A stretch of DNA of 64,000 nucleotides from Candidatus Omnitrophota bacterium (GTDB lineage: Bacteria > Omnitrophota > Omnitrophia > Omnitrophales > Aquincolibacteriaceae). The notes beneath the pieces are model-generated. The model ran no database searches, was not told the DNA's origin, and saw only the letters and a list, made by a program, of their open reading frames with translations. Positions 13,819-59,800 of the stretch are shown here, piece after piece. Location: positions 2,835-66,834 of the forward strand of contig JAUYMS010000034.1 of assembly GCA_030698625.1 (NCBI GenBank). The letters are read 5' to 3'. The first letter of the stretch is position 1, and each line of letters begins with the position of its first letter. The translations under genes were made by a program, and so were the position numbers.

Positions 13819-13999
13819 CACACGGAAAGGTACCCGCGGTTCGGTGGTTACTCAATGGGAGGAGGTCAAAATAGACGCGCGTGATCTATTATTAGTAGAT
13901 TTCTATCTATTGAATTACTTAGACGCGAGGAGATACACGATTGTGTATCTCTTCATCCAGGAGGGTACTGCACTTTGGATTTAGTGATAAAGCCTGAGG

Positions 14000-26919: not shown

Positions 26920-27029
26920 CCAGCTAGCTCCCTTGTGAGTGAATGATTTCGTGGCATGCTGTCTGCAGGATACCAAAAAAATGGGCTGAGCGCTACAGCG
27001 AAACGGCGCGAACGGGATGTTCGCGTCAG

Positions 27030-35800: not shown

Positions 35801-38800
35801 AGATCGTGTCGTTATCCGACGGGTTGTTGCGCCAGCCGTTGGTTTCGTGCACAAACGAATGGATCTCGGAAAGCATGCCCTGCTGGCCCAGGATAAGCGG
35901 ATCACGCATCACCGGGAACTGCGACAGCACGAGCAACTCATCCAGATCGGCAAACTGCTTTTGGCGATTCTCCCACAGGTACTGCGAACGTGCATGCCCC
36001 AGTTCGTGGGCAAGGTCGCGCAGGTTGAGACCTTCCGGGAATTTGGTCTTGTCTTTCTTCTCGGGAACGATCACCAGCGTACCAAAACCGGCACGGTGAC
36101 CGAACCTAATCGCGGCACCGTCGCTGCTGTCGCCCTTACCGTTACGCTTCATGAATTCTTTAAACTTGTCCTCCTTGAGTTTCAGAACAAGGATACCGTC
36201 CCGATCGATCAGTTCCGCGCCTTCAAGATCGGACTCAAGATGCTGATAGTCAAAATGGATATCTTCGGTCGGGTCCTGGCGTGTAAGCAGGAAGTCGCGC
36301 GTTTCTTTCGCCGAGGTGTCGTAGGAACGGCTCACGAGATCCTTATTGGTCTGATCCTGGAAGGCCTTGCGGACTTCCAAGAGCGTCTCACGGGCCTTGG
36401 CCGCATCAGGCTCGCTCACTATAATCAGCTTCTGCAGCGCAAAATAGACAAGCGCGCGGTAAGTATCCTCGGCCAGGAAGCGGCGGCGTTCGAGTTCGAG
36501 ACGCCGTCTCTCAGCCCCGGATGTCCCCTCGGGAATACCCAGCTCGCTGACCTTCTTTTTAATGCCATCGAGTCCGTCAGGGTGTGTCGCCGACAGCAGC
36601 CCTGCCTGCTCCGCGGTCGCCTTCGCCTGCTCGATCTGGTAGCGGTGAGCCGGCGGCACGAGGTGCTTGATACGGTCATAAACCCGGTCGTGCTTAGTCC
36701 TGTCGTAGTCGGGAGCATCGCTATGCACAAGGGCTAGGACATCACCGCGGATGCGGTTGAAGGAATCAGCCACGCGGTTCGGATGATCACCGGTCCGGCG
36801 GCGGCGGCGATGCTCTTCGAACTTGGTCTCATAGTCGACGGCATTATCTTCGACGGTATACCGCTCGCGGTCGGCCAGAGCAAAGCCCGTATACGTAATA
36901 TCACGGTTGCGCTCAAAGTTAGAACGGCTGATCTCGAGGGCCGAGCCGACGAGCCTGCCCGAGCGGCTTTGCGCAAGGAGGTTATTAAAGTAATGGAAAG
37001 TCGGATCGCTGATCGAAGGCTCACCCGTCTTAGCGCGCTGTTCGTCACTCTTCTTTTTCTTTTCATCCAGGACACGCTTGGCCTCCTCGACCTGCCCCTT
37101 CTGCAGGGCCTCCTCAAACTCAAAGATCCAGCGGTAAGCGACGTTAGTGCTGAAGTATTCTTCGTAGGCTTCCCAAGCGTTTGTGTCGCCGCTCAAGAAG
37201 CGCGTAAACGGATCCTGGTCGAGTGGTTCATTAACAATGCGCTCCTTGAAAGCGGCCTTATCACGGTACACATATTCCCCGCGGGTCATGGCCAGCGCAC
37301 GGTAGAACTGCACGGTGGCGTCCTGCTTCTCACGTGACTGGAACTTCAGGAAGTTACTCGCGACATATTCCGCGTAGTAGTCGCGGAACATCTTGAACGG
37401 ATCATCGGAAGCCACCGTCCGGCCGTGCACCGTGCCTTCGTCGATGACACGGCTGATGATACGGCCCATGCGCTCCACCCGCTCTGCTTTGACGTAATTC
37501 CCCGAGGCGCGAAGCTGGCGTGCCCGCAGGCTGAAATTCGATATATTTTTACTGCGCTGGAACGGATTGAGATAGGAATCGTGAACGCCCTCGGAAAAGT
37601 CATTGAGTTCGTACTCGATGACTTCGTGGAGAAGATGCTGACTCACATAACCGATCAAGCCTTTGTCGGGCTGGCTGACCAGACCGCTATAGCGGCCTTC
37701 GAGAAGGTCGTCCAGGACCCAGTCTGCGAAGAAGATCTTGCCGCCGCGGACAAAAGCCGGGGTGTCGGCCGCGGGCTCGATCTCAATCGGCAGGTCGCGG
37801 ATATGATCGATGAGAACGCGGAGAATGTCTTTGAATTCGTCCGGCGCAGCGGGATTCCCGAGAATGGCATCGGCATCTCTGATGATCTCACTCTTGAAGT
37901 GCTCAAGGTCAGCTTTCGTGTACGCGATGCCGTGACGCTTGCGGAATTCGATGATGCGCTTACCGTAGCCGGGGAATGCGGCGGCGACCGCATCCAGTTT
38001 GGCGAGGACCTCGTTTTTGAGCCTCTCCTGCTCGGCCGGAATGCGATCTTCCTTGTCCTTGTGGCGCCGCATCTTCTGAATGCGTTCCTCGCCGTCCTCC
38101 TGCAGCTTCGAGGCCTCATGGAATAGAATGGCCGCCAGACCCTCGCGCAAGCGTGCGGCTTCGTCGGCGCGTAAAGCGTCCTGCTCCACAATAGCGAGCC
38201 GCGCTTCATAGAGCCGCTTCAGGTTTTCAAGCGAGAGCGGCGTGCCGGTCCCGAAGAGGTCTTCGCCCAAAAGGTGCTGTGAAATCAGGTTGAGTTTGTT
38301 AGTCCAGGCCGTACGCTCGCCGCGCGCAATGGCAAAGGCGTCGTCGATCGAAATGTCATTAGCCAGAATACCGTCATGAACACCGGCAAACAGGCCCTGC
38401 AAGAGAGGATCAAGTGCAAGGCCCGCAAAACCGGCGTCACTGGCGTGATCAAGATTCACGCCAAATTTGTTAAGAATGCTCTTAATGTCGCGCAGCGACG
38501 GCCGGCCCCGGCCTTCCTGCTCGCGTTCGGCAATCACGCCGCGGATCGCGGCAACAGCGCGGCCGATCTTGATCACCGCCGCGACTGAGGCTTTTTCATC
38601 GAGGCGGAGATGGTCAAAGATCGCCTCGCCCATCCCCATACTCCCGTCGATGTCGCTGACCAGCGTTTCGTCATCCCTGAAACCACTCTCCCCGGCCTTC
38701 ACCTTGTCCGCCAGGTTCTTGCGCTCCTGAGTGATCTTCTCCGACAGCCCCTCGAAGAGTTTGTCGATCTTATGCGCAAGTCCGACCGGATCACGCCCAC

Positions 38801-41800
38801 CGTCCATCAGGGCCGCGATCTGGATTTCTCCCTTTATCTTCTCCAAGGCTGCGTTGTAAGCGCGGGCATCACGCCAGAAATCTTCTTCATTAAAGACTTC
38901 GCCAAAGCCTACGGAGTTTCGGCGTTCCTCGAGCGCTTCGGGACTGCTGCTCTCGCGGAATCTTTTGACTTCTTTATTAAAGCGCTTAAATGCGGTACCG
39001 CCGGAATCGATCGCAAGACCCGCCTCGAACTCTGCGGCCTCGTCCAGGTGCCAGCCGCCTTGAATGAGGTTTAGGGCATCCGCCACTTCGAGATTATGCT
39101 TCCGGGTAAGTTCGAGGAATTCCTTGTGACCGAGAGTGGTGTGGATCGGGTTCTTGGACAGGAGTTTCTCACGGACATCCTTCTTATTGAGATCGGTATT
39201 CTTGTCGGCCAAGCCGATTTGCGTAAGGCGATCCTTGTAAGCAGTGAGAACCTCCATCTGAAAGGCCACGAGAGGATCGGCCGCCTTCTTCAGATCTTCA
39301 AAAATCTCCTCACCGAAGAATTTGACGGACTGCTTCTGCGTCGCATAAGTCTTCTTGAAATCCGCGATACAGGCCGGCGCACAGCTCAGATCCTTCTCCC
39401 ATTCTTCGAGCTGATGCTCAAGCTGCTTCTTTTGCTGCTCTATCTGGACAAGTTTGTCCTTGTCCTTCTCATTTTCTTTGAGCTTGTCGAGATAATCAAA
39501 GTTCTGCTGGAAGTTTGAGTACTTCTGGTAATCCCCGAGCACCGACGGCCCGTACTTTTTCTTGCGGACGAGGGCCTGGATGGAATCTTTGGCCTTCTCC
39601 TGATATCGCTCCTGAACGCTCTTCTGCAACGACTGGTCTTTCTTCACGCGGTTCAGGGCTTCGCGGTCCCTCACGAGAGCGAAGTATTTGTCGATCGTTT
39701 CTTTGGACGGATTGTTTTCGGGCGCCAGGGCGATACGGGCGCGTGTCCACAAGCTGGTCGCTTCATCGTCGGCAAGGGCCGCAATACGCGAGCGCAGCCA
39801 CTTCGCTTCGGCATGGCGGTCCACCAAACCGAGCAAGATCCCCTTGAAGAAATAGCTGAGGTAGAACTTAGCACCCACAAACGGGGGCTTCGCATTCCCT
39901 TCCGCATCAAAAAGCGTACTCCGCGTATAGTAACCGCTCAATGCCTTGTAAAGGCCGACAAGAGAGCCGACGCCGACCAACGGGTACCAGACATAGCTGC
40001 TGCCGAGCACTCCCACAACCGTCTTACCAAGAGCAAATGTCGCCGCCGTACCGAGAGCACCTTTAACCGCCGCGAATGCCGTTACGAGCCAGCCGATGAG
40101 CGGGAACGAGAATCCCAATCCGAGCCCCGTCGCAATGGCCGGCAGGCCGAAAACCAAAAGTGCGCCGATGCCGGCTAGCGCCAGCCAGAAGAGCGGGCTG
40201 CGGGCAAAACCAAGCAGGTATGTCTCGATGTTCCGCACGGCACGGAATTGTGAGATCAGCAGAAGCGCCGCCAAAACCGCTGCAACAATCATCGAAACGC
40301 TAACGAGCACCGCGCCTCCGAGGAAGAATCCCCCGGCCAAGAGTCCTGCCGCTAGGCCGATCTCGAGGGTACGGCGGAGCGGCGTCACATGGGTGATCTT
40401 GCCTTCCTTATCGATTCTGTCTAAGCGCTCCTTCGTCTTCTCGACGCGTGACGTAAAGAAGAACTTAATCTTCTCGACTGCGGCGGAGAAGAAGGCCTTG
40501 ATGCGCGTACCGAAGAAGAGGACGATGCCGGTAATGGCAAGCGCGCCCACCACAATAACGGTCGGCACGACGATCATGGCGAGCAGTGATCCGCCGGCAA
40601 TCACAGCCGCGCCGATGTTAAATAAGATGAATCCGAGCAGACCGAGACCGAGGCCCACCTTGCCGATTTTCAGAAGCGTCTCATTGCGTTTCGCACGGCG
40701 CAGTTCCCGGACCTGTTCTCGGGCGTCATTGCGCAGCTCGACAAGGCGTGCGGCGTCAAGCACGCCGCGCTCCGTGCCCTCCGTAACGATAACCGCGAGG
40801 GCAGCACGCTCCTGACGCAGCGACTGTTCGAAGAGTTCTTCGGTCTTGATCTGGTCGTCGGTGCGGTTCTGTCCATACCAGGCCGTCCATTCATCCGGCA
40901 GTATGGAATCGAGGACCTTTTCGGCACCCCGCCGCAATAGCATGCGTAAAATAAAGAAGAAGCGTGCAACCTTCGTGTCGGGGACTCTAATCCGCTCCGG
41001 CAGAATACTCGTCCAGGCGCCGAAGAAATCACCATAGGACTCGGCGCGAATGCCTAACGCCCCGCGGTAGATCACGCGCCGCTCGGAACGCAAAGCGAGG
41101 TTGGTCTTGCGGAGGTTTGCGCGGACACTCGCAGGCACGTCGGTAAAGGCGGCATGTGAAACTTCTTGGTTTAGAGCCGCCAGCGCGTCGCGGGTTGCGC
41201 CCACATCGCCGCTGCTTGCTGCCGCGCGCACGCGCGCAATCCCGTTAATAACCCCGGCCAGACGTGTACGCTGTGCTGCCGGCAGTCGGTCGAGCGCGGC
41301 CTTCGACTGCCCGAGGGCCGTATCGATGCCGCTTTCAGCCGCATCCGTAAGCGTCGCCGCCGGCCGCAGGCTCTCCTTCTGGCGGCGCGAGAGACGTGAG
41401 GTATTGATGCCCGACAGGATATCGCCGGCACCCTGAGTGAGGTCGATGCCTTCGATGTCTTCCGCATTAATGTAGGAATCTTCAATCAAGTAACCGCTGC
41501 CGATGTCGGCAAGGACCGTCGAACCATTGATCGTGGTATCGTCACCGATGGTCACGTCGTCGCCGATGATCGTGGTGCGCTGTTTGAACTTGTCCTTATC
41601 GTCCTTCTTCTTATCGGGATTGATCTCACGATTGCGCAGACGCACATTGCGGCCGATTTGCACGCGACGGCCGACCACCACACCTTCGCCGACAACCGAG
41701 TTCTTACCGATAACGGTCGGACGCTCACGGTCACCGTCCTTGATGGTGGCGCCCCGGCGTACCACTGAGTTCGCTTCGAGGCGGACATTGCGGCCGATCT

Positions 41801-44800
41801 TGGCCTGAGCCTGAATCACCACACCGCTTGAAATATAGACACTTTCATCAATTTCGGCGAACGTGTCGACATGCACAAACGCAAAACCGCCGTCATCAGC
41901 TTTAACCCACCGCAGTTTGCCGCGTTCCACGTCGATCTGTGTCTTGAGACTCTTGAGCTCGGCCGACACCTCGATGGCCGCGGCCGTATGGCCCTGCTCG
42001 AGTTGCTGCAGCATCGGGTCGGCGGCCACCATCTGTTCATAAGTTTGCCCGTAGACCGCCCGCACAACGAGATCGCCGTCATTGCCGGCCTCGGTCCGCT
42101 CGCGCAGGCCATAGAAGTTGATCCCGCCCGAGGTAATGCGGCCGACGCTCAGGGAGTCAACCCGGTTAAGCAGAGCCTCGGGATTCTGAATGAGAGCCCG
42201 GCGCTCGTCTTCATTGAGTTCGAGCCGGATACGCGGCTTTCCGGGCTGCCTGATGACAACTGTGATCCTGCGGTCAGAGCAGTCACCGGCGCCGCCGCAC
42301 ACCGCCGAGCGATCAAGTTCGCGCAATGCGAGGATGGCGTTGGAAAGCGCCCGGCTGGTGGACTCGCTCGAAGTATTTTCCGTATCAACCGTAACCGTCG
42401 CACCGGCATCGGTACGTTCCACAATCACAACGTCCTCGGCCGTATGGACAGACGTTGCTGCACCGGCTTCGGTTTCAGTGGATTCAACAGCAGGAGCGGC
42501 GCGTTCGGCTCGTTCATCCTCAGCAATACGGATCACGATAGGTTCATACTCTCGCACCGACTCAACCGTATTATTGTATTGAACATTCCGAATCACTTTG
42601 AGTTCACCTGCAGGCGTCTTTAGCTGCGCCTGGCGGTTGCCTTCGAGCACGTTGCCGAGACCGCCTTTTACGACCGTCTGCGTCGCCACGATCTTGGTGG
42701 CCCGGTTTCCGACGAGTGCCGCGGCATTAAAGCCGATCGCGGCCAGAATCGCCGGAATAAGCGGCAGCCCCAGCAGAACCGCTGCGCCTGCTCCGGCGCC
42801 TATCACGGCCAGCCCAAGCAGCAGTACAACGGCAATAGCGCCGCGCTTGCCGATACGGTTCTGCAATGCGCTGAATCCCAGATACCCGGCAGTCACGCCG
42901 ACGAGAAGGCCGAGGACGGTACCGGCGAGTATGACCTGCGCGAAGAGAATTCCGGCCACAATTAAGCTGCCGAACGCCGCCGCCAATCCTCCGGTAAGGG
43001 CTAGTGTGCGCAGGAAGCTGAAGCCTGCGGCACCGGCCTCCTGAATCCGGGCACGGAAACTCCCGAGACCCACGAGGTCCATAATCCGTCCGATCGTATT
43101 GCGTATAAGCCAGTTGAGACCCAAGCGGCTGCTCAGCGTCGGCAGTACCGACAAGACGAGTCCCGCGCCGAAAACAATACCGGCAACAAGTAAGACACCG
43201 AATGGCGCAAGGAAGAAGCTGACGGCGGCCGCTACAAGCGCGCCGGCAACGGCAATACCGCCGATCACACCTGTGCGTCCGCGGAAGCGATTGAGCGCGC
43301 GGCCGACCTTGCTCAAGTCTTTCGGCGCCGTCGCATCCGCTACGTCGGCGGCCAAACCGGGGTGAGCTTTCTTGAGCTGGTCCAAGGCATCCGCGACGGT
43401 ACGCTCGCGGACTGCACCCAACGCCAGCGCGGCCTGTAGGCCCTGCACGCCAAGGTAAGAACCTTCGCGGCCGAGGCTGCGAAACTCGACGGCGCAACTC
43501 GAACAGCTGTTCAACACCGATCGCGCGGCAGTCTCTGCTTCGGAACCGATAATACTCTTAAGTGAAACATTAAGCGGCACTCCCGATTCCCGGACCGCGA
43601 TCAACACCTGGGCCGCACGGCGGGCTTTTAACGCATGGTCGGTAAGCGTGTCCTGGTCGGCGATAAACTGATTCAGGATATCCGCCAAGAGTGTCTGCTT
43701 CGCCTCTTCGCTGAGTGTTTTGTCGTTGCTGATCTCTTCACGGATGCGGCTGACAAATTCATTCTCGAGGCGGCTCTCGGCATTGTGAATCCCCCGGACC
43801 TCAAGATTACGCCGCTTCTGTTCCGACTGTTCCTCCAGCTTCAGAGAATGTTCGTAGGCGCCGTTGATCAACGCGCGGCCGAGGTTGTCGATATACTCGC
43901 GTTCGGAAACAGCTTCTTCAGCCAGCAGGCGGAGGCGGTAGGCTTCGGCACGGCGCGCCGCTACATCGTGGTCTCTGCCCTCTTCGGTAAATAGCGGTGT
44001 CCCGGTCGTCTTAGTGCGTTCGCCGCGTATACGGTTCAGTTTATCGATACGTTGCGCGTTCGCATAGCGCCTCGCATCGTCGACGCGCGCGGCGTCGACA
44101 AGTCGGTAACCGAAAGCTTTGAGTTTCGCTTCAACTTCACTGGCATTCTCGGCGGTGACTTCCGTCTCAAGCGAACCCTCGCGGCCGATGGCAAACTGCC
44201 AACCGAGCGCGCGCAGCTTGCCGTTCAACCACGACAGAGCCGCGGCCTGACCGCTGTTTTGGGCACGGGTTCTATAGTCGCTGAAAAGCTGCGTCACTGC
44301 ACTCGTGACTGCGCGATGACTGAAATAGGAATCCTCCGCTGACCCAAGACCAGCCACGACCTTCTTGTACTCCTGTTGGATCTGCGCAGGCGTTCCGCGA
44401 AACGCTTCGAGCCTCTTCGCTTCCTGCAGATAGCCGAGCCCGCGCAAGAAGCGGCCCAACCGTCTCTGTAAGAGTTGCGCGTTGCCCTGAACTTTTCGGC
44501 CGAGACGCAAACGCTCGACGCGGCTCTTGAAAAAGCCCTTAATTTCACGATCGCCGTTGGTCTGCCGGTCGCCTGCGATGACATACTCATTCAACGCCTG
44601 CTTCTCGCTCGTGAGTGTCACGCTCATGCGGCTATAGTTCAACTTGACGGTATAACGTTCATTACCGATCTCAAGCGTCTTGCCGTCAGTCAACTGATAA
44701 TTAACGCCGCCGACCTTGAGACCTGTAATCTGACCGTCCTTGTATGTAAAGTCAAAATTTTGTCCGTTCTCCTGAACAACCTGACTACCGCTCGCATCAG

Positions 44801-47800
44801 CATCACTGCCGCTCTTATCAGCAGGGACGCTGAATTGTACACGGGTATTTCCGTTTTGATACTGCTGGTATGCCGCCTCACCCTTGGATGCCAGATACTC
44901 GGTAGTCGAGACCGCGCCGTTTTTCTGCTCACCTTCAAATTGTGAGAACTTCTGTGACTCCTTAGCGCGGGCATTAAACTCGACCTTGCCGGGCAGGTGG
45001 TCGATCAGAATGCGGTCAGCCGTGGCTTCGGTCGTATTCCTGCGCGCCTGGCTGAGAAGCGCTTCGAGCTTGGCCCGCTTTACGTCGAGCTTGCGTTCAA
45101 GCCCCGTCGTGTCGCGTCCTTTAGCGCGAGCGGCCTCGACCTTTTGCTGCAAGGCGAAGTACTGAGCCAATGTTTTCTTAAAGAGCGCAAAGCTAGCGGC
45201 ATCGGCTTTCGTTCCCGGCAGGTTTTCAAAGCCGAGCGCCACAATCTCATTTACGTCCCACTCATTGACATAAATCTCACCGACGCGGCCGGGCGCTTCA
45301 TTGCGGCCGGAACGCGCCACTGCCTGCTCGAAGTCAAAGAGGTTGCGGCTTGCGCCCACGGCATAACCCAGTTCCCCGTAGGCGTAGCTGACACTAAACT
45401 TGTCGAAGAATTCTGCGACATGCGTTCGATACGCCGCTTCGATCTCTTGCGGCGTCGCCGAACTCTCAAGGCCGAGCTTCTCAAGAAGGCTCGTACGCGC
45501 ATCACCGCTTGTCGCTTGCGCTTTGGCTACCGCGGCATTCCCAGTTTCGGCACTAAACTTATCAAGAAGCTTCATCACATCGTCACGCGTCAACTCATCC
45601 GTGACCGGCAGTCCGACGCTGCTGCGCAAACCGTTGATAAAGTCGAGAACCTTCTGCCGTTCCGCCTCGGAATAACCGGCGAGTACTTCACTCAGCTTGA
45701 CTGTTGCCGTCTTATCGTTCAGGTTCTCACGCAGCGCATCCTGCAGAAGCAAGCGCTGCAAATGATGGAGCTTCTCCAATTGCTCGGTCTGCTCATTGGC
45801 GCTGTAACCTGCCTGACGCAGCAGCTCGCGCAGGCTTCGTTCCACGCTCTTGTCCCTGTCTCCGCTCTTGACGCTTTGTGAAAAGGAAGCGAAAGGCGGC
45901 ACGAAGTTCGTACCACGGCTGACATTATTCGAGGCAAAAACGACACCGCGCAGGAGACCGCCGTCTTTACCTTCCTTGCGGCCATAGTCACTTTGAGATC
46001 CGTCGAGAAGGTAGATGCGGCCGGCACTGAGAGACAGGTCCTCGAGACCGTGCAGGGCCGTAAGTAAATCGAAATCCGTCCGCACACGCGAACGCAGGTT
46101 GGAGAAAAAGCGGCGCACGGCATTATTGAGTGCCGGCTTCGCGGTCGCATCACCCCACTTGCTGCTCAACTCTTGAAGCAGGTTCTCGAGTTCGGCCAGC
46201 ATGGCCGTGATTTCAGCGTCCGTGAGACCCAGTTTCGTCTGGTTTGCCCTGAGCGTGGCCTCCGCCTGCGCCTTCACATTGGCAATGTAACTCTTTACAT
46301 ATTTGCGATAGGCCTGCTGGGCTTGTTCCGGCGACTTAAAGAACAGACGCGAGATCGTGCGGTAGTTCTTCTGTGCATCGGCCACCAGGTCGGCGATAAC
46401 CCGGTCCACTTCTGCCGCCGTCGTAAATTTGGTCTCATTGATAAATCGCGCACGCCTAATATGGGTATCGAAGTTTAGATAGTCCTCCGGGCTCGCGATG
46501 ATCTTGAACGCGGCCGCTAGCTTCAGGAAGGCCTTATCCTCCGTCTGGATGAAGGCCTGATCACGACTGCCGGAAGGTATGGATTTCACGGATGCCAGGA
46601 CCGTACCGCTCGATCCACTGAGGTCCATGCTACCATCCTCGAAACGCCGCGTCTTCATCTCAAAAACCACAAGACTGTCATTCTCACCGCTGGTCTTGCT
46701 TTCCGCTTCGACCTTAAGGACACCGCCGTTGTCAAAAACCAGGGACTGGAAAGCGGCTTCCAAAATAGTGCCGCCGAAATTGCTTTCGCGCTGCGTCGAG
46801 ACACCTTCGTTGCTCATCACGCGCACTTCATAGACGGGCGTACCGCTCTCGTCAATCTTGTCGCCTTTGGCATCTTCAGCCACTTTGAACCCGAAATCCT
46901 TGCCCGCACGGCGAGCCAGTAGGATCTCGAGACTGCGGCGCAGGAGCATCTCGAAAGCCTTGTCGGGATTCTGCAGCTGCTTGCGTTCCTCTTCACTGAG
47001 AAGCAAGTTGGAGTTGTCGAGTCCGAGCTGGGCAAAGAAATCTTGAACGTTACCCCCTCGGCTTTCGACGCGTTGCACAAATTTCTTGTAGAGTTCCTTC
47101 GACTTCTTGCTGAACTCGTCGGTCGTGCGCAGGCTTAACCGGCCGTCAGTCCCCTCGGAATCTTCAAGGACAAAAAGCGTGCCCGGTTCTGTACGGCTCA
47201 AGAGCCGACGTGCGGTGCGGGCCCACTTCTCATGGGTGCGCTCAGTCGCACTTTCGGTGCGGATGCCGAGGTCCTGCTCCACGAGTTCCTGAGCAAAGCC
47301 GAGAAGAGTGCCGAAGTTTTCGACATTCTTCTTCGCAAGACTGCGGCCCCCTTCCGCATTGATATAACGCATCAGGATCATAAAGATGGCGTCAATTTCG
47401 TCCACGCTCAGGATGTATGAGTCGTCCGAGAGGTTCTTGTCGTTAGGCGCACTGCTCTGGTCTTCTAAATACGCAAACTGATAGTCGGAAATCGATATGT
47501 ACAGGACGCGCGGCTTTTGTTCCTTGTTTGAAAATGCCTGTTTGAAGGTATCCCTGCCCATCTTGTTCTTCTTGAGGCCGTAGGTTTCAATACCGAATGC
47601 CGCATAAACGGCCTGGTTTTCATTCAAGAGGTCGTCGCTTACGGCCTGTTCGGTATGCAGGAGATGAGCCACGGTAGGCCCGACAAAGGCCTTCAGAATA
47701 TTTCGGAAGAGCAGTGTGCCGGTCTTACCCTGCGCGGTCGGGATACCGCTAAGGATGCCCTGAATCAAGGCCGCGCCTTCTACCAGCTGAATGCCGCGAA

Positions 47801-50800
47801 CCGAATAGTCGAATGCCGCATTGAAGTGGCGCTGGGCAATGGTCCCGGCCACGAGGAACTTGAAGACGATATCGTTCGGAATTTCCCGGCCCTGAATTTC
47901 TTTCGCTTTGTGATACTCATTACCGAGGGCTTTCAGTTGGGCCGCGAGGAGTTGTTTCAGAGAGTCGGAGGCATTAAAGAGTTCGTGAACCGCATTGAGG
48001 GTATCAACCGCCGCCTGTTCTTGGCTGCTGAGGAAGACAGATCCCTTGTCGTCATACAGCCCGCGCTTGCCCTGTTCGACGAGCTCGCGGAGCAGTGTGC
48101 GAAGCGCTGCCTCTTTCTCCGCCTCTGAACGTGCCGTATCGAAAAGGATATCCCGCACGCCCGCAAGCCTGTTGCGCAGAGGCTCCGGCAAGGCATCGAA
48201 ATCCGCGGCCGACAACTTTCCATTTTTAAGGGCCTTCAAGAGAAGCTTCACTTTGATGTCAAACTCTGCCAGTTGTTCGAGATAGATCGCCTTCTTCGCG
48301 CGCGCAGAAGTCTCTGCGTCATCACCCTTCAGTTGGAGCAGGCGCTCCCTCTCAGTAAAGGAGGCGATATCGTCCTTGTTTTCTTCAATACGAAGGTACT
48401 TGCTATCGAAGGCATCGGCCTCTTTGGCGGCTTCGACCCCTTCGACCAAGTCAGTCAGTTCAATGGACCGCGGGTTGTCCGGCGTGAGCTTGGCGTTCTC
48501 ACCGACCAGCCCTTCCAGGCTTCGGATGCGGCGTGAGAGTCGATCATTCTGGATCTGTAGTTCACGCTGGCGCAGAGGATTACGCAATTCATCTCCGGCC
48601 TTCAATTGCGGCCCGATGACGTGCTCACGAAATTCCACGAAGTGGTCATGCAAGGCTTTGCCGGCTTTCTGGATTTCGCCCTCGGCTTCTTTGGCCTTCT
48701 TGAGCAGTTCTTTGGCTTCTTCCCTCAGGGTATTAAGAGTCGCGCGAAGCCTAACCTTGCTCGCGCGTGAACCCCGCGCGGCAAGGAGACTCTCGGTCTC
48801 TTTGACCTGCTCATCTACTGCAATGAGCTGTGCCCGGATGCGCGCGAGAACCCCATTAGCGGCGTCAAACTCCGACTCGAGGACATCGGCTCTGCGGTCC
48901 AGAGTCAGAACAATTTCATCCGTGCTAAGGACATTGCCGTCGGCATCGAATTCCGCCCTGAAGGCAATGCCCGTGCGGGCGTCTTCGACATAAACCACGA
49001 CCTTGCCGTCGAGGTAGAAGAGATCCGTCCCCGGCTTGAGCTCCCGGCCAAAACCGTTGACGCGGTGCCCGGCAATGTGACCCGTGTTGTCGAGAAAGGC
49101 CTTCTGGGCATTTTCGCCGTAGTTGCTGTAGCCGATTTCCTGCAGGCCGTCGGCGTCACGCCCGGCAAATGTGCGGAAACCAACCTCGTCCCCGTTTTCA
49201 TTAAAGAACCACACCGCATCCTGACCATTCAAACGGCCTTTGGCGATAAAACCGCCTGAGGCCGTCACACGCACGTCGCGCTCATCCACCTCGGCGCCGC
49301 GGTTCACGGTCAGATCCGCATGAAGTCTTTGACGCCGTTCCTCGAGCTCTTTTGCTTTACTCTCAGACCTTTTGGTCGTGCCTCGCGTCGCAGGATCTCT
49401 GCGATTCAGGAAGCGGTTCGTATCCCGGAGCAGCCGGTAACTGCCTGAAAGTGTCACGAGGAAGCCAAAACCGTCGAGCTTGGCGAGGGCCGCGAGGAGT
49501 TTCGCGCGCTGGTCCGGCGTGAGTGTCTTAAAGCGTTCGACATCGCCGTTGATAACGATGGCTTCCTGATCGGCAGCGGCAACTCCGGCGGCCGTCAGCT
49601 CCTGATGATGCAGCTCGTGGCCGGTGAAAAAGCCGAGCAGAAGCGACAACTCACCCGCGCTAAACTGACCGGAGAAAAGGCTCGCATCCAAACGGATCGT
49701 CCCGGTTGCAAATTCGAAGTCTGCAGGATGCGGGGCATTCTCAAGTATTTCAATCCTCAGATGGTTCGGAACCGCATGGCCAAGCGCGGCAAGCCTGGCG
49801 ATCGTCCGGTTCTGGAGGAGAATTGCCGTCACGATAAGGCGGCGGCGCTTCATCCCCTCGGCGTCGGTACCGATCCCGAGTGACACAAAAACGTCTTCAA
49901 GTTCCGCGAGCAGTTGACGCCGTGCGCTCAACACGTCCGTGACGCGGCCAAGTGCCCTGCGGTCAAGAACGATCGTGCCGGTAGCCGGGTCGATTGTCAC
50001 AAGACTTGAGCCCGAAACGGTAGGCGTTACACCCTCAAGAACATTGGTGCCTGCACCGCGGGTATCGGCGGTCAGAACCGGGAACGCGGCGGCGGCAGCG
50101 GTACTGCTCTCATCTCCCTCACGCAAAGCAGCACCTGCGTGGGCCGCGACATTTTCGGCTTCGCGGCGTTCGAGCTCGCTCAATTCGCGGCCTTCGGCCA
50201 GGCTCGCGTAAAGCGATTCCTGCAATGCCGCCGTGCGGACGGCAAGCTCGCTGAAGTGGTCTTGCAGGGTCCGGTCGCCGGCAGTCACCGCAACATACTC
50301 GGAACGGAACTCCTGTAACACGCCTTCGCCGGCAAGCGCGAGGTGAGCATTACTCTCACCCGTAGTGTCGAAACTGAGCGTAAGCGCATCATATTTGGCC
50401 TGGAACTGATTACGCGCAGTTTCGGTATTCCGCACTGCCGCTTCAAGGGCGGTACGGGCCGCCTGCACCTGGGCATAAGTGGCACCTTCGCCCCGGAGGT
50501 AGCTGCTATAGATCCCGCGGAACTTCGCGGCTGCTTCGCGCTGCGAGTCCGCAGCCGCTTCGTATTGATCGCGCAGAGCACGCAACACCGCAAGCTCCGA
50601 GGCACCGCGGCGGCTGAGGTCTTCGGCCGCGTGAGCATCGTCCTCGGTGAGCCTTATGGCCTCGTCGGTGACGGGCGCGGCATCAAGATCGATACCGGTA
50701 CGGCGGGCCTCGAGTCTGGCGCGGCCTTCCGAGAGGTTGTCTCTAGCTGCCTGCACCAAGGCGAGAAGCCCGGCAAGCTCGGCGTCAGTGAGATTGCCTC

Positions 50801-53800
50801 CCTTTAATAAGATTTCCAGATAGCTTCTAGCCTCGTCGAGCGACTCCCCCGCAAGCCTCAGCTGGCGCTCGGCGCCCTCAATCGTGGCCCCTTCAGCCTC
50901 CGCCCGAGCGGCCGCGTTTGTCGCGACTCGGGCATTCACTTCAATGCCCAGTCGATACGCTTGTGCCAGCAGCGCTTGTGCTTCCTGCAGTGTAATTTTT
51001 TCGTCCTTTAAGGCACTGCGAATGCCGGCGATAAGCGCCCTGAGCTTACCCTGAGCCCGAATGCCCTTCGTAAGATCAAGATCCGCCCCTCTAGCGAGTT
51101 CCTCAGCCTGAGCCTGCGTCGCGTTCAGTCCATCAAGGACCGTCGTATCACGCGTGCCGGCTTTGTTGATCTGCTCATTAATCGCATTGATCACTGCGTC
51201 AAGTTTGGTATTGAACTCCTGATTGGCTTCAGATAATGCCTTTGCCCTTGTTCCCTTAAGCAAGCCTCTGAGTGTCTTTTTCAACTCGGTGATGTCTGTT
51301 ACTTTGTGAAGGGCGTCGAGTTTCGAAACAACAGCACGCGCCGCATCGAGATCTCCGCGCAGGACCAGGGCTTCTGCCAGCTCGGCGGCCGTTCCGACCT
51401 GCTCTGCCGTATAGGTATCTGCCGTACGCGACGCGGCCCAAACTCCAAACTCCGCATCGGATAGAACCGCCGCTTCTGACGCCGACAATTTTTGAATCCT
51501 CTCAGTGTCCGGCCCCCGCGCTTCTTTCTCAGCGGTTTCACGGCGGTTGCGCGCCACATCCAGGACCTGCTCGATCGCCGCGTGCACGGCTTCGTCGCGC
51601 GGCGCGCCCTTAGCGGCACGGTTAGCAAAGTTCACGGCGCAGGAGCTGCAGGTCGCATCAAGGGCTTCAAGGTCTGCGGCAAAATCAGCGTCGATCTCAA
51701 TTCCCGAACGCGCTACGTTTTCAAAGGTATGCCCCACACGGTCGGCCCGTTCATCGGCAAGTTCCTGCTTCTGCGCCTCACTGAGCGAAGACCCCTTGAT
51801 GCCTTCGATCATGGCATCATGCGCCTGCTTCTGCTGCTGCAATGCGGTCCGAAGCGCATCCCGATCACCCGCCCGAATCGCGTCTTCCACCGCCAGCTCG
51901 GCCCTAATGGCCGCAAGTTCATGACTTGTTTCGCCGCAGCCACCGCCGCCGCATAGTTCCTGGAACTTCGAGACGTTGTTCCGGACAGCGTTGATGTCCA
52001 GCGTATCCACACGGCTCAAAGCGGCGGCGGCCTTCGCCCGGAACTGATTAGCCTGGTTCGCCGTCACACCCAGTTCAGCCTGCAATGTCTGCGTCTCGGC
52101 ATAGAGCCCGAGGATTTGAGCGCGCAGCTGCTGCATCTGACGGTAGGTCTGCGCCGTCCGCGGGCGAGCCTGAAGAGCGGCTAGTTGGTCGATCTTGGCA
52201 AGTAACTCATCAGCGGCTTCGACGAGCCGCTGCGCTTTGGCGCGGGCCGCCGCATCCCTCTTGAACGCCTCGTCGATGTCATTCAGGAAGTCTGCGCCGT
52301 CAACGAAAAGATCGGCGGCCGTCACGGGAATGGCGGCTCTGGCGGCCGCGGCCGCTGTCGCAAGTTCTACGCGAAGCGCGCCGAGTTCTGCGAGCACAGT
52401 CGCATGCAGAGAAACTGCCTCAGCGGCCGGCGCATAATTCAATACTTCTCCAGCATGCCGGTAAGCGGCGCGCAGTTCTCGAGCGGCTTGCGTCAGTTCG
52501 CCCTTAACGAGATGTTCACGGGCCTTGGCGGCACGCGCCCGAGCCTTGGCCGCATGTATTTCAGCTGCGGTGCTTGGTTCGGAGGCCTCAGCCGCCGCTT
52601 CTTCATCAGCCGAAATCAATCGATTGAGACGGTCCGCGAGATCCTGACGTGCCGACCGGATTCCATTGCGTATCGCATCGGGTACTGAAAAGAGCATGAC
52701 CAGAAGACGCAGGGCAATCCACTCAACCAGGATGACGGCACCACCGGCAACGAGGCCGGCCGTGATGGCCAGGGCGATCGTAAGCATTACAGCAATGGCC
52801 ATCGAACCGCCGACAAGGGGCACCAACACCGGCAAGAGCAGTGCAAACATAACGATACCGGCCGCAATCGCCAAAACTGACGCGATGTTAAAGTACTGCG
52901 TACCCAACGTACCGAGGACCCATCGTAAGCCGTCGACGATCCGCGAAGACAGGGTCTTGCCGGTCCTCTCAGCCGGCGCAATCGTCTTAGCCAACCATTC
53001 GATCAAGCCCTTCTTGCCGTTTTCGAATGCCTGATTCAGAGCGCGAGCCACTGCCGCAATCCTTGTAGACACTGCAATGACCGGCGGTGCCAACGCGCGC
53101 GTTATGAGCACCGCAACAATAATCGCCGTCAGTACGGCCGCGGCAACAACACCGACCGTAAGACCGAATACCAGGGCGAGTGCAAGCGCAATACCCGCAG
53201 TAACCGCCAACTGATCGGAGACACGGCCTGTCAAAAAGCGGTACATCCCTTCCGGTATCACCTCAGAGATGGCCCAGCCGGCAAGGCCAAGCATGCCTAG
53301 GAGCAGAGCCACACCCAGGAAACTCAGCACTATGCCGGTAAGCGTGTAAGCCGCCCCGGAGATTATTAATCCCGCCAATGCCACAAGCGCCGGAACTCCC
53401 AACACCAGCGCCGTCACCACGGCGGCGGCCGCACCCATCACAAGAAGCATGCGTGTCGGCGAAATACTGGCAACGCGATTCCGGATTGCCGTACCCAAAG
53501 AACTCGCGAAGCCCCTCAGTAAGGTCCTCAGGTTGATCGGGATACGGAGAACGGTTTCTTCGGGTCTGGTCTCCCCGAATGCCGGTATCGTGATGGTTTG
53601 AGTGAAGAGAAATAAATCACTGACATACAAGACTGCCGCAACCAGAGCGCTCACGATGACAGCCGCGACAAGCCCCGGAAGAATACCGCCGAGAACAAGA
53701 GTGAAGCTGGTGATCACGGCTGCCGCAACAGCGGCAGTAACAAGGGCAATCGCGATGCGGCGCCCGTAATTGACAGCAATATCAACCGCCTTGTCGAAGG

Positions 53801-56800
53801 TAGCTTGCGCCGCGAGCAGGCTGAGCGCAACGGCCGCCGCCCCCATAAGCACTGCAAGGCTGAAGGCGTATGCAATCTGCTGGCGATAAACGATGGCTAG
53901 CGTGACAAGCGTCGTCACAACAGCAACCGCCGCAACCGTCCCAAAAACCAGCGCAAGTCCGAGCGCAACACTGCCGAGTGTGAATCCGAGGATCGTGCCG
54001 ATGCCGGCAAGCACAAACGGTGCAAGCACTAAGGCGAGGATGATCTGTCCCGCACGGTCGCCGGTTAAGCCGAGCAACGAACCGATTTGAATGGCATACG
54101 GGATCACGGTCGCAAGAGTTGCAATGATGGCGATTGTTGCAATGGCATTAATCACACCGCCGACAACGAGACCTACGGCCGAGACCGCCAACACACCTGC
54201 CGCAACAACAGTTAAACCAATTCCAATTTGACGGCGGTACTTGACAGCAAGTTCGGTCAGGTTCGACGCACCTTCATATGCGAGAGCGGCGACGATAACG
54301 CTTATGATCCCAATCGCGATAGCCGCGCCGGCGCCATAACGCGCTAGCGTACGGCCGACGGGAGGCCCGTATCGAACGGCCAGGTCCTTCAATCCGACAA
54401 GCAGGTTGTAAGCAACGGAGAGACCCGCAATAACGGTAAACACACCGATAATGGCCCCGGCAACTGCTGCAAACACCAGGGCCTCGCCGATTTCGCTGCG
54501 ATAAGCGACGGCCACGATGACTAGCGCCGCAACTGCCGCAATCGCCAGGGTAACGCCGATCAGGATAACGGCACTCGCCACAAGGCTAACGCCCAACACA
54601 GCGTTCACACCGAGCAGCAGGCCGACGCCGGCCGCAAGTGCGGCTCCGGCAATACGAATTCGCTGTGCATTGGCCGCATAGAAGTTCGCGACGGCAGTCC
54701 CGGCAGATGAAAGCGCCGAAGTTATTGCAGTCGTAATCGTGCTGCCATAAGTACGAATCAACCAATTAATACCTGCCGCGACGGCAGCGACACCGGCAAT
54801 TGCAGCAAGGCCGAGAGCGGCATACAACCCCACCGTCAAGGCCAAGGCCGGTGCCAAGCCAATGCCGAGAATCGCGGCCACACTTGCAAGTACAATCCCG
54901 GTCGCAACACGATGACTCCACAGGAACTGGGCCACCCTGCCGATCACGCGACCGGTCGCCATAACGGTCTGGAAGATCAGATAAACAGCGGCGCCGAATA
55001 ACGCCGCGGCCAACGCAAAGGCACCGAAATACGCCAGTGATGCAAGAAAGCCGCCGGTCAGCGGAATAAGAGCAAATGCCGCACCGAATACGACGGCACT
55101 GAGCCCGAGGGCTATGGCGATCGCGCGGACCACCTGAGCTGTCTCGGATTCTCCTGCTTTTACCCAAGCGGTAATCGACGCAATAAAACCCCAGAGACCG
55201 GTCAATGCAGTCAGTGAGGCTTGCTGCAAAGTAGTGCTGAGTATGAGTCCGATAGCGATAAGAACGGCAGCCGCAACAGCGGCCCCGACCACACCGCCCA
55301 GGAAGAATGTCGCCGCTCCGCCTGCCGCAAGGACCAACGCGACAGCCGCGACGGCGCGCAGGTTCATACGGCTCAGGAATCCGCGCAATTTGCTGAAAGC
55401 AAAGTAAGTGGCCCCGAGGGCGAGAAACCCCGCGAGAACCATGTAGATCTGGTTGATGAAGGGCCTTATTTGGTCGGCACTTTCGGGGAGACCCGTATTT
55501 TGCCCTATACCTTGCGAATCAAGAAATACAAGAAGGAGAGCAGCCAGCGCAAGTCCGGCGATACCACCAGCGACAATCTTGACCATTTCTAGCAGTGCGG
55601 AGCCCCCACTCCCTGAACGAGCGCGCCGGCTCGGAGTCGTACGCCCGGAAGGCGCGACGGCGCCCGAATCAGACGGTGTCACGACCACGCCACCGTCATC
55701 CGGTGCTTCGAATGCGTCGGCACCAGATGCAATGGGCGGAGCAAAATCCGTAATGGGGGGGACAGCTTCGGCCTCATCGACTATCGGCGGTGCCGGCGCC
55801 GCTCTGCCAACGGGAACCGTTTTATCTGCCTCCGCAACAGGCAGGGCATTCAGTTCGGCCTGCGTCGACGCTGACCGCGACGTAGCATCCGCGGCGTCCT
55901 TCGTCATGCCTAACGCGGCGTAAAGCTGCGCTGCCTGACGGTAACTCTGTATGGCAAGTCTATACTCGGCCGCAGCCGCGGCATAATACGAGCCGGCATC
56001 CCTTGAATCAGCTCTCCTCGCGCGAAATTCAAAGTCCTTTGCCAAGGTATAATGCGAGTCTGCTTCGCCATACAGCGACTCCGCCTGAGCCGAAGCAGCG
56101 GCCATATCGGGCACTCCGGGTGTGACAGGCGCCGCCGGCGCAGACTGATCAGACGCACTTTCGACAATGGCCGCGCGAAATGCCTGCACAAGCGGCTGCG
56201 CATGGGTATAGCCGGTGTTGTACAAGTATGCAGCGTCACCTTCGAAAAATCGGGCATTCAGGCCCAGCGGCTTCCCATTCGCGCCCTGGGCTTGCTCGGG
56301 ATATTCAATGCCGGGCGCCGATATGCCCGCCTGCAGCACGACTGTGTCATTGACGCCATACGGAGTGATTGCTCCATCTGCGAGTTCCACATGCCCTTGC
56401 CAACTGATATCGTATTCGGCATTGTGGTGGAAGGAGTAAATAAGTTTGCCGTCCTTTGACTGAACGAGAACGGTGCGGACATCGCCTCCAAAGGCATCGT
56501 TATACCGCGTTTGATCGGACAGAATGCCGTTTTCGAAATCGGGCGCCGATCCTTCCTGCCGAACACCCTGTTCGGACGGGTTACTCGAATGATTGAATGC
56601 GACGTATTGACCCCCGTCCGCCAAGGTCGCCGCATACCCGGCCTGTTTGACCATGCTATCGACCACGCTCAACGGTATAAACAGGGCGGCATCGAGCGCA
56701 TCACCCAGGGTCGTTCCGTCAATGACTTCAAGACCGTCGAGGTAATCGCTCACGCCCGTGCGAAGTGTCTGCTGTGTTTCATGATGTCCCTTGCCGAGCC

Positions 56801-59800
56801 AGGTGACCTGCTCAGTATTTTCGGCGTCCCGAGCCAGATGCGAGGCGACCCGCCACTCGCTCTGGGAATTACTCTTATACGCGAGTCGGAGATTGACAGT
56901 GCCGTCAGCCTCGACGACATAGAGCACCACGGCCGCGCGTCCGTCGATCTTAGAAACCGAAAAGGCGTCGGAGGAATAGACCACCTTCCCGCCGATCGTG
57001 AACTTGTGTTTGGGGCCGAGACCCGCATCCTGAAGTCTCGCAAACACCTTATCTGCCGTGTTGTACTTGCCGTCTCGCGAAATGATGTGTTCAATCGGAA
57101 AGTAGGTCTGTCCCAGCTGCTCATCATTCGACAGGCGCAGGTTGCCGGAACTCACTTCCGGGGCTTCAGTCACAGCACCGTTCTGAACCACATTGCCGAT
57201 CCGAACGCCGCCGGTAGCCGCAGGTGCTTCCACCCGGGCGCCACGCCCTTCAGCACGCGCCTGCGCTTCATTGCGAGCCGCCAGCTCCTGCTGTTCAGCC
57301 GAATCGATCGTGGGCGCTCCTGAACGCAAGCGGCTGGCGGCGTCCCGCGCTTCCCTTCCCGCCGTATCCACCCTTGCCGCATCTGCCGTGTGGCCAAGCT
57401 CTTCATAACGACTTTGCGCATCGGCGAACAGGCGTGCCGCGATATCAAACTCCGCGGCCGCACCTACTGCTGACATAGATTGAAAATTAAGAGCAAAGGC
57501 GACCTTAACCTCGGCCTGCTCCTCGAGATCCCGGGCCTCATTTAACAACTTTGCCGAATCGGAGGCAGTGCGAGAGGCGTCCCCTTCCTGTTGCTTCAAC
57601 CCGGCTTCAGCGCGCGCTCTAAGTGTGCGGGCGTGATCGAGTCGTTCCTGGATCCGATCCTTTGATTGTCCGTAATTCTGTCCCAGGCCCGTCGCCAATG
57701 TCAACGCATCGCTAAGATCCGCCTCGGCACCCTGCGCATACGGCAGGGCCCGGGTAAAATCGCCCGCATCGATATTGCCTTCCGCCCATTCAATCCGCGC
57801 CTCGGCCCGTTCGATGTTATTGATGACGGCGCTAAGCGATGCTAAATCGCTGCTCAGTTTCCGTGCGGCAGCCTTCTGACGCCCGCTCGTCCTATTGACA
57901 AGGCGGCCCAATTGCTGCTGAAGATTTTTCAACGCAGCCTTCGCCGTCCGGAGCCGCTCTTCGGCCTTTCCGGAATCATCCGCCGCGGCGTAGGCGACAG
58001 CCTGCGCGACGGTCCGGACAATCTTAGCGTAGGTATCCTGCGCTTCAGTCAAGACGCCTTGAGCCCCTTCGCCTTCGCCAAGGTAGAGTTCCGCAGCTTG
58101 CTGACTGAGGCTGCGTGCGTTCACAGCAAGCGCGCCGAATCCGGCGTACCTCGCTGCATGCCGGTCAAACTCGCCGGCGGCATGGTTCAACTGCACTTGA
58201 GCCAGAGCGAAGGTACTGTCCCCCCGGCCTTCGACGGACTCACGGCCCAGGGAGTAACTGACGGCTGCCTCGGCAACTCGATTCGCGGCCTGTGCTTCAA
58301 TCGTATATTTATCCGCCTGAGCCTTGTCTGCCGTCTCCTCGGCAAGCTCGGTGAAAACAGCCGCGGCCTGCCTCAGCAGGGTTGCCGCTCTGACATAATT
58401 CGATTCCGTGTACGTGACCGTTCCGGCCGTCGAATCAGGCAAGCCGAGCAATTCGAGAGCGCTTTTCACAGTGCTGCGGGCGGCTCTGGCCCGTTGTGTC
58501 ACACTCTGCGATGGCGCCACCGTGCTCTGCAAGATTTCGCCTTCACGCCCGCGGCCGGTGAGGACGCGGAGGTTATTGGCGATATGCGAGGCGATGGCTG
58601 CGAGCAAGCCAAGAGGCCCTGCCCGGAGTACGCCCCGCGCCATGCGGCCGGCAAATTCCTTGTGGCGAAGTTGACGCTCATTTATGATTTCAGACACCGT
58701 TTGCGCTGCCGCACCAGTCACCGCACTCGCTCCGCTGCTTTTTACGATCTCTTCGGCAGCCCTGCGGTCTGCGCTCTTATGAGCCGCCGCAAATTCACGG
58801 TTGGCCTGGACAAAGGCGCGCAGCAGGGCGTTGCGAAAACCGTGACCTGCACGCAGATTCTGCACGAGCAATACGGCAGGCCGCCCAACGCGGAAATAGA
58901 GCTCTTCGGCGACGGGGACAACGAGACCGTTGACTAAAAGGTTCGCGGGTTTGGATGATATGAAGTCGAGGCCGGTCCCGATGAGCCGGCCGGCCGAACC
59001 GAAGATCGCGGCCAGGGCATTGAGCACGCCCTGCGCCAGGGCATTCAGGCGGCTGAGGAACCCGGGCCGGGCTTCAGCGGCCGTCGCCCGGTAGAGGCGG
59101 GTAATTTCGTCCCTTTTGCCCTCGATATCCTGGACCCGTTCGAATCCCGCCCGCGTCAATAGCCGTTCATACGCATTCGCGCGCCGGGATCCCGTGGTTT
59201 CCTTCTCGGCCCCGGCGGCCTCATCCACGACCCTCTCGCCGCGCTGGGCCGTCGAGAGGACGTCGATGCCGAGGGCCCCCAGGCCCCTCGCAGCGCCCAT
59301 GAGCTTGCGCGCGAAGTCAATCGAATCCTTGGAGGCATTGGCCGATATGCGGGTCAGAGAACCGCCCACTGTGAAGCCGATCTCCACATAGGAGTCCCTG
59401 ACATTCAGGCCTTTCGCGAGGGAGGCGTCTCTCCAGTTGATGATCAGGTCCTTCCCGTTCACACGGCCATAGGCATGAAAACTCACCGCCGTAATATATG
59501 CGAAACGCAGGCCCGGGAATTGCTCGTGCAGGAGCACCAGGGCCCGTTTGCCGTTTTCCGGCAGGCGGCTTGCGCCCGGCGCAATGGCTTCCAGACGGCG
59601 TCCAAACGCAAGTTCTATCGTGCTCGCGAGGCGCTCACCTTTGGCGGCAGTTCCGATAATGACACTCACATTATGGGCGATGTGCTTGCCAATCGCGGCT
59701 CCGAGTCCCAAGATACCAGAGCTCCCTGCAGCGGCGGCGAAATCTTTGGCAAGATTTTCATAGTATTTGAATTCTGCGCTATCCACCCGCGAAACATCGG

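Follow-up and report, generated by a model that had tools for sequence, protein, structure and literature searches.

The stretch of DNA analysed here, hereafter the window, comprises 64,000 nucleotides of contig JAUYMS010000034.1 from a Candidatus Omnitrophota bacterium (assembly GCA_030698625.1). It carries on its minus strand one open reading frame (ORF) that encodes a giant protein of at least 11,383 amino acids (aa). Three arrays of genuine transmembrane (TM) type alpha-helices lie in this single polypeptide and are separated by long soluble regions. We think it probable that the giant protein is an inner-membrane hairpin-array protein, which is inserted during translation and whose soluble modules are stapled to the membrane on its cytoplasmic side. 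The arrays would consist of hairpins, each made of two alpha-helices and an uncharged turn of 2-5 residues. These hairpins would enter the inner membrane of the producing cell itself as the chain is synthesised, and would serve as repeated anchors for one soluble module after another.

The giant ORF runs without interruption through positions 29814-63965 (11,383 aa), and its stop codon lies at 29814-29816. The frame contains no stop from 63965 up to the end of the window (64000); because it is open at the window edge, the N-terminus must lie outside the window, and the feature covers 29814-64000. Codon-position composition was uniform along the ORF, including the GC content of the first and third codon positions, and the overall GC content was 57-60%. 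A length of 34 kb at this GC content without any stop rules out chance. The contig was assembled from a metagenome, and the first 5,275 aa, including the first cluster, are without support from homologues, so a mis-assembly or a fusion of several genes might have joined clusters that belong to separate polypeptides. We find such an artefact hardly credible. Against it stand the absence of stops and the uniform codon statistics. In addition, an independent Logan assembly of run SRR13727534 holds a 4,094-residue, contig-truncated gene call directly upstream of the same neighbouring genes (matched by gene order, not by sequence). Two homologues, P0004 and P0005, are also collinear with the giant protein over the SecA-like region, cluster 2, the beta-helix, cluster 3 and the C-terminus.

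The hydrophobic segments were located with a Hessa-scale scan (19-residue window, sum ≤3). The scan returned 34 segments, all of them inside three clusters; 33 were uncharged, one carried a single charged residue, and 24 had a Hessa sum below 0. A Kyte-Doolittle scan agreed on the same three blocks. Cluster 1 is at 52683-55577 (aa 2797-3761) and has about 26 helices (22-30). Cluster 2 is at 42705-43274 (aa 6898-7087) and cluster 3 at 39948-40658 (aa 7770-8006), with about 6 helices each (4-7 and 4-8, respectively); all three are on the minus strand. Together they make up 12% of the chain (approximately 1,390 aa), and the total is 34-38 helices by hydropathy and our own segmentation. The spacer between clusters 1 and 2 measures 3,136 aa and contains a SecA-like region, and that between clusters 2 and 3 measures 682 aa and contains a beta-helix. 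An earlier, sequence-only reading of this DNA had proposed three helix clusters split by long soluble regions within one polypeptide, and both the positions and the spacers were recovered in the single ORF. Its count of 25-30 helices for the first cluster was right, while its counts of about 8 and 8-10 for the other two were somewhat high.

The composition of the clusters bears on whether they are membrane segments at all. Ala and Gly are abundant in them (27-35%), as would be expected of low-complexity Ala/Gly/Val linkers arising from GC-rich sequence. However, the residues ILVFMW account for 42-46% of the clusters and charged residues for 6-11%, compared with 26.5% and 26.6% in the rest of the giant protein. 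The segments are 17-26 residues long and paired. Non-overlapping scan windows with a Kyte-Doolittle mean of at least 2.0 numbered 36, against a mean of 5.6 and a maximum of 14 in 200 composition-preserving shuffles. Thymine at codon position 2 rose to 0.41-0.44 in the clusters from about 0.26 elsewhere in the ORF; this rise is specific to the clusters and the first and third positions stay constant, which shows that the reading frame is right. The positions of the clusters are also kept in homologues at 30% identity despite the drift in sequence. Linkers of this kind are extremely improbable, and the three clusters are TM-type alpha-helix arrays. The chain does enter the membrane many times, as the sequence-only reading had supposed. 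Multiple crossings, however, need not mean that the soluble parts alternate between sides.

The arrangement of the segments and of the charges around them suggests hairpins. Fifteen of the 22 hydrophobic uncharged stretches were 39-66 aa long, which leaves room for two helices and a tight turn. The 15-aa flanks of the stretches contained 106 Lys or Arg (K/R) residues against 40 Asp or Glu (D/E) residues, although in the soluble background of the giant protein K/R (12.4%) is rarer than D/E (14.3%). Cluster 2 is composed of three uncharged stretches of 49, 50 and 46 aa, which we read as six helices. Segmentation of cluster 2 by hydrophobicity only returned six helices whichever threshold was set; the flank side then held 17 K/R, and the 8 turn residues held none. 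In cluster 3, a basic amphipathic loop of about 48 aa is conserved; the middle threshold (T=3) gave six helices here, with a K/R split of 26 to 0. In clusters 2 and 3 this distribution of charge favours an even number of helices, so that both flanks lie on the same side. In our segmentation, the topology with both the N- and C-terminal ends inside was the best for all three clusters under any positive-inside term. Cluster 2 shows this preference robustly and cluster 3 moderately, and in cluster 1 it is marginal. Cluster 1 consists mostly of uncharged stretches of 46-66 aa, and the motif [LIVA]A[IV]xY[RG]xx[IVL] occurs in it five times, at helix ends. Searches of aa 1-4000 against Pfam (E up to 0.1) and NCBIfam (E up to 0.01) returned no family, and cluster 1 matches no curated membrane-domain family.

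Homologues were sought with a full HMMER scan of aa 6880-8020 against 1.84 billion representatives. Only P0004 and P0005 were true homologues, and the other 16 matches covered the beta-helix only. P0004 (5,567 aa) spans an entire contig of an Omnitrophota metagenome-assembled genome (MAG) from groundwater. A microbial-mat assembly yielded P0005 (4,266 aa), which is a C-terminal fragment. Collinearity with the giant protein extends over aa 5276-8308 for P0004 and aa 6551-11347 for P0005, at 24-36% identity. Both have hydrophobic clusters exactly at the sites of clusters 2 and 3, with different numbers of helices and at about 30% identity. At the cluster 2 site each homologue has 2 helices, and the alignment shows that the last hairpin of cluster 2 is conserved in both; the two extra hairpins of the giant protein appear as whole-unit gaps in the alignment with P0004. 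At the cluster 3 site P0004 has 2 helices and P0005 has 6, and the first hairpin and the basic loop are conserved. P0005 has one additional hairpin elsewhere. Position and hairpin character are kept while the sequence drifts, which argues for a membrane-anchor function rather than for linkers.

Further searches added no relatives. Profile scans of genome and metagenome contigs returned only the contigs of P0004 and P0005, and those of viral contigs returned none. A word-indexed search with cluster 1 found no homologue, a type of search that is little informative. Nor did word-indexed searches return anything when the query was the SecA-like region or a SecA alignment of two sequences. As the latter failed to recover even P0004, the limit of 8,000 candidates is evidently saturated, and these word-indexed negatives carry little weight.

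A divergent SecA_DEAD domain lies between clusters 1 and 2, at 47379-48032 on the minus strand (aa 5312-5529; Pfam PF07517, E 1.8e-11, 44.3 bits, cut-off 24.6). Its motifs are intact: a Walker A sequence PTAQGKTG (GKT at aa 5413) and DEID (aa 5522). A PDB sequence search with this region matched SecA (3bxz, E 0.0028). Pfam gave no match to the scaffold/wing domain SecA_SW in the giant protein, and none to SecA_PP_bind at E up to 0.1. Two strings, ASNNVSRGTNF at about aa 6011-6021 and ARSGRNEAPG at about aa 6216-6225, look by eye like SecA motifs V and VI, and both are conserved in P0004. From these strings and the alignment with P0004, a possible second RecA-like lobe was placed at 45294-45947 (minus strand); a PDB search with aa 5960-6260 and Pfam did not confirm it. 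The spacing from DEID to the motif V-like string is 490 aa, and an unrecognisable insert may take the place of the SecA preprotein-binding domain. Within this region, an insert relative to P0004 at 45400-45580 (minus strand, about aa 6128-6186) gave a weak J-domain-like match to a DnaJ-like protein (PDB 7am2, E 0.12). The matching string, LLEKLGLESSATPQEIEAAYR, has no HPD motif, and the match is probably due to chance.

Between clusters 2 and 3, a left-handed beta-helix of hexapeptide repeats was detected at 41511-41870 on the minus strand (aa 7366-7485; Pfam Hexapep, E 8e-15, 54.2 bits, cut-off 27). Its NCBIfam matches of the LpxD/LpxA kind were far under the cut-offs. The AlphaFold model of the beta-helix showed short-strand periodicity with a predicted local distance difference test (pLDDT) score of 78-90, and this was the sole confident part.

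The even number of helices and the strongly basic flanks of clusters 2 and 3 indicate that the SecA-like ATPase, the hexapeptide beta-helix and the C-terminal 3,400 aa are most likely cytoplasmic. An ATPase requires ATP, and the donors of hexapeptide acyltransferases are generally acyl-CoA, acyl-ACP or nucleotide sugars. These needs also point to the cytoplasmic side for both modules. With turns of 2-5 uncharged residues, there would be nothing large to translocate, so we infer that insertion of the YidC/signal recognition particle (SRP) type would suffice. This route is suggested by what is known of hairpin proteins such as ATP synthase subunit c.

The hairpins might instead be destined for another membrane, either as pore-forming or translocation hairpins in the membrane of a prey cell or as a bridge between inner and outer membranes. 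Colicin-type pore domains and chlamydial Inc proteins also contain uncharged hairpins of 40-60 aa. It has been proposed that Omnitrophota are epibiotic predators whose giant proteins act on the surface of the prey (West-Roberts et al. 2023, bioRxiv 10.1101/2023.11.21.568195; Seymour et al. 2023, PMC10066038). However, some 1,390 aa with 42-46% ILVFMW and 24 of 34 Hessa sums below 0 would be unable to stay soluble and would be captured by SRP during translation. Neither an amphipathic shielding domain nor a beta-barrel signal was seen. The basic flanks suit the inner membrane of the producer, and the ATPase sits between clusters. We regard delivery to another membrane as very improbable. The suggestion in the sequence-only reading that the chain might span two membranes found no support either: the segments are alpha-helical hairpins of the inner-membrane type with turns of 2-5 residues, and no outer-membrane element is indicated.

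A mixed topology is less improbable. In such a protein at least one cluster, most likely cluster 1, would have an odd number of helices. The long soluble segments would then alternate between the cytoplasm and the periplasm or cell surface, with, for example, the N-terminal repeats outside and the SecA-like part inside. The number of helices in cluster 1 varied from 25 to 30 with the parameters, and the scores differed by only 1-5 units. Published predictions place HEAT-type repeats and most domains outside, and 39% of long Omnitrophota proteins fall in a class with both a signal peptide and TM helices. On the other side, cluster 1 is preceded by RRAR...K and followed by RNGIRSAR, so that it is basic at both ends, and its first loop is acidic. 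By the positive-inside rule both flanks would be inside, which favours a cytoplasmic location for the N-terminal 2,800 aa as well. Export of a charged helical region of more than 2,800 aa would also require a signal sequence, and none was seen. The secreted-type second giant ORF of the window, described below, differs in composition, being beta-rich and lectin-type. We consider a mixed topology possible but unlikely.

Several points nevertheless weigh against the cytoplasmic hairpin array that we prefer. The helix counts and the sidedness come from our own dynamic-programming segmentation, which is a heuristic rather than a trained predictor. Without the charge term, K/R in cluster 1 was split evenly (23 versus 27), and the in-in topology was preferred by only 1-5 score units. 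Cluster 3 gave 5 or 8 helices at the other thresholds, and P0004 had 3 helices at the cluster 3 site at another threshold. No counterpart of cluster 1 was found in the 3,092 aa upstream of the P0004 SecA domain. The AlphaFold2 model of cluster 2, the beta-helix and cluster 3 (3 sequences; mean pLDDT 42.6) was too poor to show hairpins, and that of the SecA-like region (2 sequences; mean pLDDT 38.9) was too poor for use. The N-terminus lies beyond the window, and a signal peptide is possible there, which would also suit a mixed topology. Finally, most domains of such proteins were predicted to be extracellular by West-Roberts et al. (2023), who called their own topology predictions unreliable.

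The cysteines of the giant protein are a further point of this kind. There are only 10 in 11,383 aa, an approximately tenfold depletion compared with about 0.9-1.1% in the neighbouring genes, and all 10 occur in five tight pairs (Cx4C, CxxC, CxxC, Cx5C and Cx3C). On the minus strand, pair 1 is at 51936-51953 (C4005-x4-C4010, CGGGGC), pair 2 at 51639-51650 (C4106-x2-C4109, CSSCAVNF) and pair 3 at 43494-43505 (C6821-x2-C6824, CSSCAVEF), 77 aa ahead of cluster 2. Pair 4 is at 42279-42299 (C7223-x5-C7229) and pair 5 at 39369-39383 (C8195-x3-C8199). The sequence CSSCAV(N/E)F is common to pairs 2 and 3, which are 2,700 aa apart. Pairs 4 and 5 are conserved in P0004 and P0005, and these homologues have Cys only at the equivalent sites. 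Met and Trp are also low in the giant protein. Depletion of Cys, strict pairing and low Met and Trp are more usual in exported proteins and thus agree with a mixed topology; alternatively, they would fit functional CxxC sites, zinc hooks for example. Paired Cys only were also present in the second giant ORF (CC, CC, Cx6C and Cx7C), which is clearly of the secretion type, so the trait may characterise this organism's giant proteins rather than a single compartment.

A more elaborate arrangement was also considered. The block of about 26 helices in cluster 1, or all the hairpin arrays together, could form a conduit driven by the SecA-like motor embedded in the same polypeptide. The five Cys pairs could then staple distant helical arms through Rad50-like zinc hooks or short disulfides, giving a defined scaffold of megadalton size at the membrane's inner face. 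We regard this arrangement as improbable.

The remaining regions of the giant protein yielded few recognisable features. Internal repeats were detected by self-BLAST at 61443-63233 on the minus strand (aa 245-841). They are rich in Ala, Thr, Ser and Asn and helical-looking, with copies of about 150 aa at up to 66% identity, and Pfam gave no match to them. More broadly, Pfam found no domain in the first 4,000 aa. A duplicated module is present at 59616-60026 (aa 1314-1450) and 58518-59021 (aa 1649-1816), also on the minus strand; the copies share 40% identity (self-BLAST E 2.6e-11), and each contains EExxFR, FxxxH and HxxxN, as read by eye. The order of these motifs is that of CPBP/CAAX-type intramembrane proteases, and the setting is weakly hydrophobic. 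An identity as CPBP/CAAX proteases was dropped, as the motifs were picked by eye and Pfam gave no support. In the C-terminal part, at 34395-34619 on the minus strand (aa 9783-9857), a partial metal-binding segment resembling M20 peptidases and peptidase T gave a weak Pfam match below the cut-off (14.2 bits) and a PDB match to tripeptidase 3rza (E 2.5e-7). PDB sequence searches with aa 2251-2600, aa 8651-9500 and aa 1301-1833 returned nothing significant.

Three HExxH strings were noticed in otherwise unannotated soluble regions of the minus-strand product: HELHH at 49605-49619 (aa 4783), HELGH at 35994-36008 (aa 9320) and HEFEH at 30705-30719 (aa 11083). HExxH strings are present in the corresponding region of the C-terminal part of P0005 too, and no family matched these regions of the giant protein. 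Judged by the motif, they could be zincin-like modules, perhaps involved in self-processing.

The giant ORF is followed on the same strand by ordinary chromosomal genes, which encode a response regulator and a histidine kinase, a transaldolase-phosphoglucose isomerase (PGI), a LysM amidase, RecN, PEP-CTERM proteins and a CHASE2-SpoIIE protein. The RecN, amidase and CHASE2 proteins match NCBI proteins of a Candidatus Omnitrophota MAG exactly. On the taxonomy given by the depositors, the giant ORF is encoded in a Candidatus Omnitrophota genome. The fused transaldolase-PGI gene lies at 24073-27117 on the minus strand and was listed as an ORF of 1,014 aa. The Logan assembly calls the same gene at 948 aa, so the listed start is probably too far upstream. 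Searches of the window for tRNA genes and Rfam families gave no match.

A second very long ORF, of at least 4,606 aa and with its ATG at 13818, occupies positions 1-13851 of the minus strand and runs off the left end of the window. Its product has an N-terminal segment resembling a signal anchor, two Laminin_G_3 domains, a CBM60 domain, an Ig-like domain and a Peptidase_C39 domain (aa 3580-3672); a hydrophobic hairpin comes next, at about aa 3726-3770. Among long Omnitrophota proteins, it is of the adhesin/C39 type. A reading of the ORFs at 1.6-13.3 kb on the plus strand as small genes was rejected, since they are antisense frames of this ORF.

Giant Omnitrophota proteins are among the largest proteins known, and the published calls on their topology are admittedly unreliable. 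The protein described here is of a manageable size, and the topology signal of its clusters 2 and 3 is unusually clean, with the positive charges of the hairpins all on one side and whole hairpin units gained or lost between homologues. If the hairpins are arranged as we suggest, the soluble mass, including the SecA-like ATPase, would be cytoplasmic, and the protein would form a membrane-stapled intracellular scaffold rather than a surface coat. This would bear on the predation and adhesion hypotheses for giant Omnitrophota proteins, and would remove the need to export thousands of residues.

That such a protein has several TM clusters is in itself no novelty. All full-length giant Omnitrophota genes have numerous TM regions, and the majority code for divergent SecA DEAD domains without scaffold and wing, for which the adjacent TM regions were suggested as anchors (West-Roberts et al. 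2023). According to Kizina et al. 2022, as quoted by Seymour et al. 2023, the giant protein of Velamenicoccus archaeovorus has 39,678 aa and 42 TM helices. Most giant ORFs of Omnitrophia have multiple TM helices (Seymour et al. 2023). DeepTMHMM predictions for 916 Omnitrophota proteins of at least 10 thousand amino acids (kAA) found TM helices or a signal peptide in 94%, with 22 helices on average and as many as 331 in a single protein (Nielsen & Lui 2026, bioRxiv 10.64898/2026.06.07.730766). In that survey, 46% had TM helices only and were read as membrane-anchored cytoplasmic proteins, 39% formed the class with signal peptide and TM helices mentioned above, and PF07517 defined an architecture group of 20 proteins. 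The premise of the sequence-only reading, that most giant bacterial proteins have no more than one terminal anchor, holds for many adhesin-type giants but fails for Omnitrophota on all three figures (42, a mean of 22, and up to 331 helices). The giant protein belongs to the described Omnitrophota kind with many TM helices and a divergent SecA-like ATPase. Neither West-Roberts et al. 2023 nor Nielsen & Lui 2026 mentions hairpins, the positive-inside rule or cysteines. What is new here is the hairpin pattern with one-sided charge in clusters 2 and 3, the differences among homologues by hairpin units, and the conserved Cys pairs; this added value is modest.

Compared by published descriptions only, the giant protein shares with the long and giant TM and SecA_DEAD proteins of Omnitrophota the phylum, a length above 10 kAA, TM helices scattered along the chain (approximately 6% of residues here, about 2% on average in the survey), a SecA_DEAD domain without scaffold or wing, few other recognisable domains and a near-singleton sequence. 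Within the window at least, it passes the 10 kAA limit of Nielsen & Lui but not the limit of more than 30 kAA that defines the giants of West-Roberts et al. It differs in that its helices are packed in three dense blocks, one of about 26 helices, and in its high GC content of 57-60%. A SecA preprotein-binding domain overlapping the DEAD domain has been reported as common in these proteins, and the giant protein shows no preprotein-binding, HEAT, glycosyltransferase or dockerin match. Across its full length, Pfam (E up to 0.1) gave no HEAT, GT5/GT1 glycosyltransferase, TPR, methyltransferase, NUDIX or similar domain, so the domains of the archaeovorin subtype (West-Roberts et al. 2023; HEAT, GT5/GT1, TPR, methyltransferase and NUDIX) are not found in it. 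By description, the giant protein of V. archaeovorus LiM is likewise an Omnitrophota giant ORF product with dozens of TM helices interspersed with soluble regions, and is 3.5 times longer.

The giant protein shares with canonical SecA the first nucleotide-binding lobe, with the Walker A GKT and the DExD-type DEID; strings that look by eye like motifs V and VI lie further on. In contrast to SecA, its domain is strongly diverged (PDB E 0.0028) and has far longer insertions between motifs, and no preprotein cross-linking, scaffold or wing domain was detected. Canonical SecA is a soluble protein of about 900 aa, whereas this domain sits 5,300 aa into a membrane protein. The predicted left-handed beta-helix resembles that of the hexapeptide-repeat (LbH) acyltransferases. 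Chlamydial Inc proteins have a bilobed hydrophobic domain of 40-60 aa, and the proposed unit of the clusters is architecturally like this domain and like ATP synthase subunit c: two uncharged helices in 40-66 aa, a tiny turn and both ends on the same side. The likeness is one of architecture only; there is no sequence similarity, and the giant protein would concatenate about 19 such units in three arrays.

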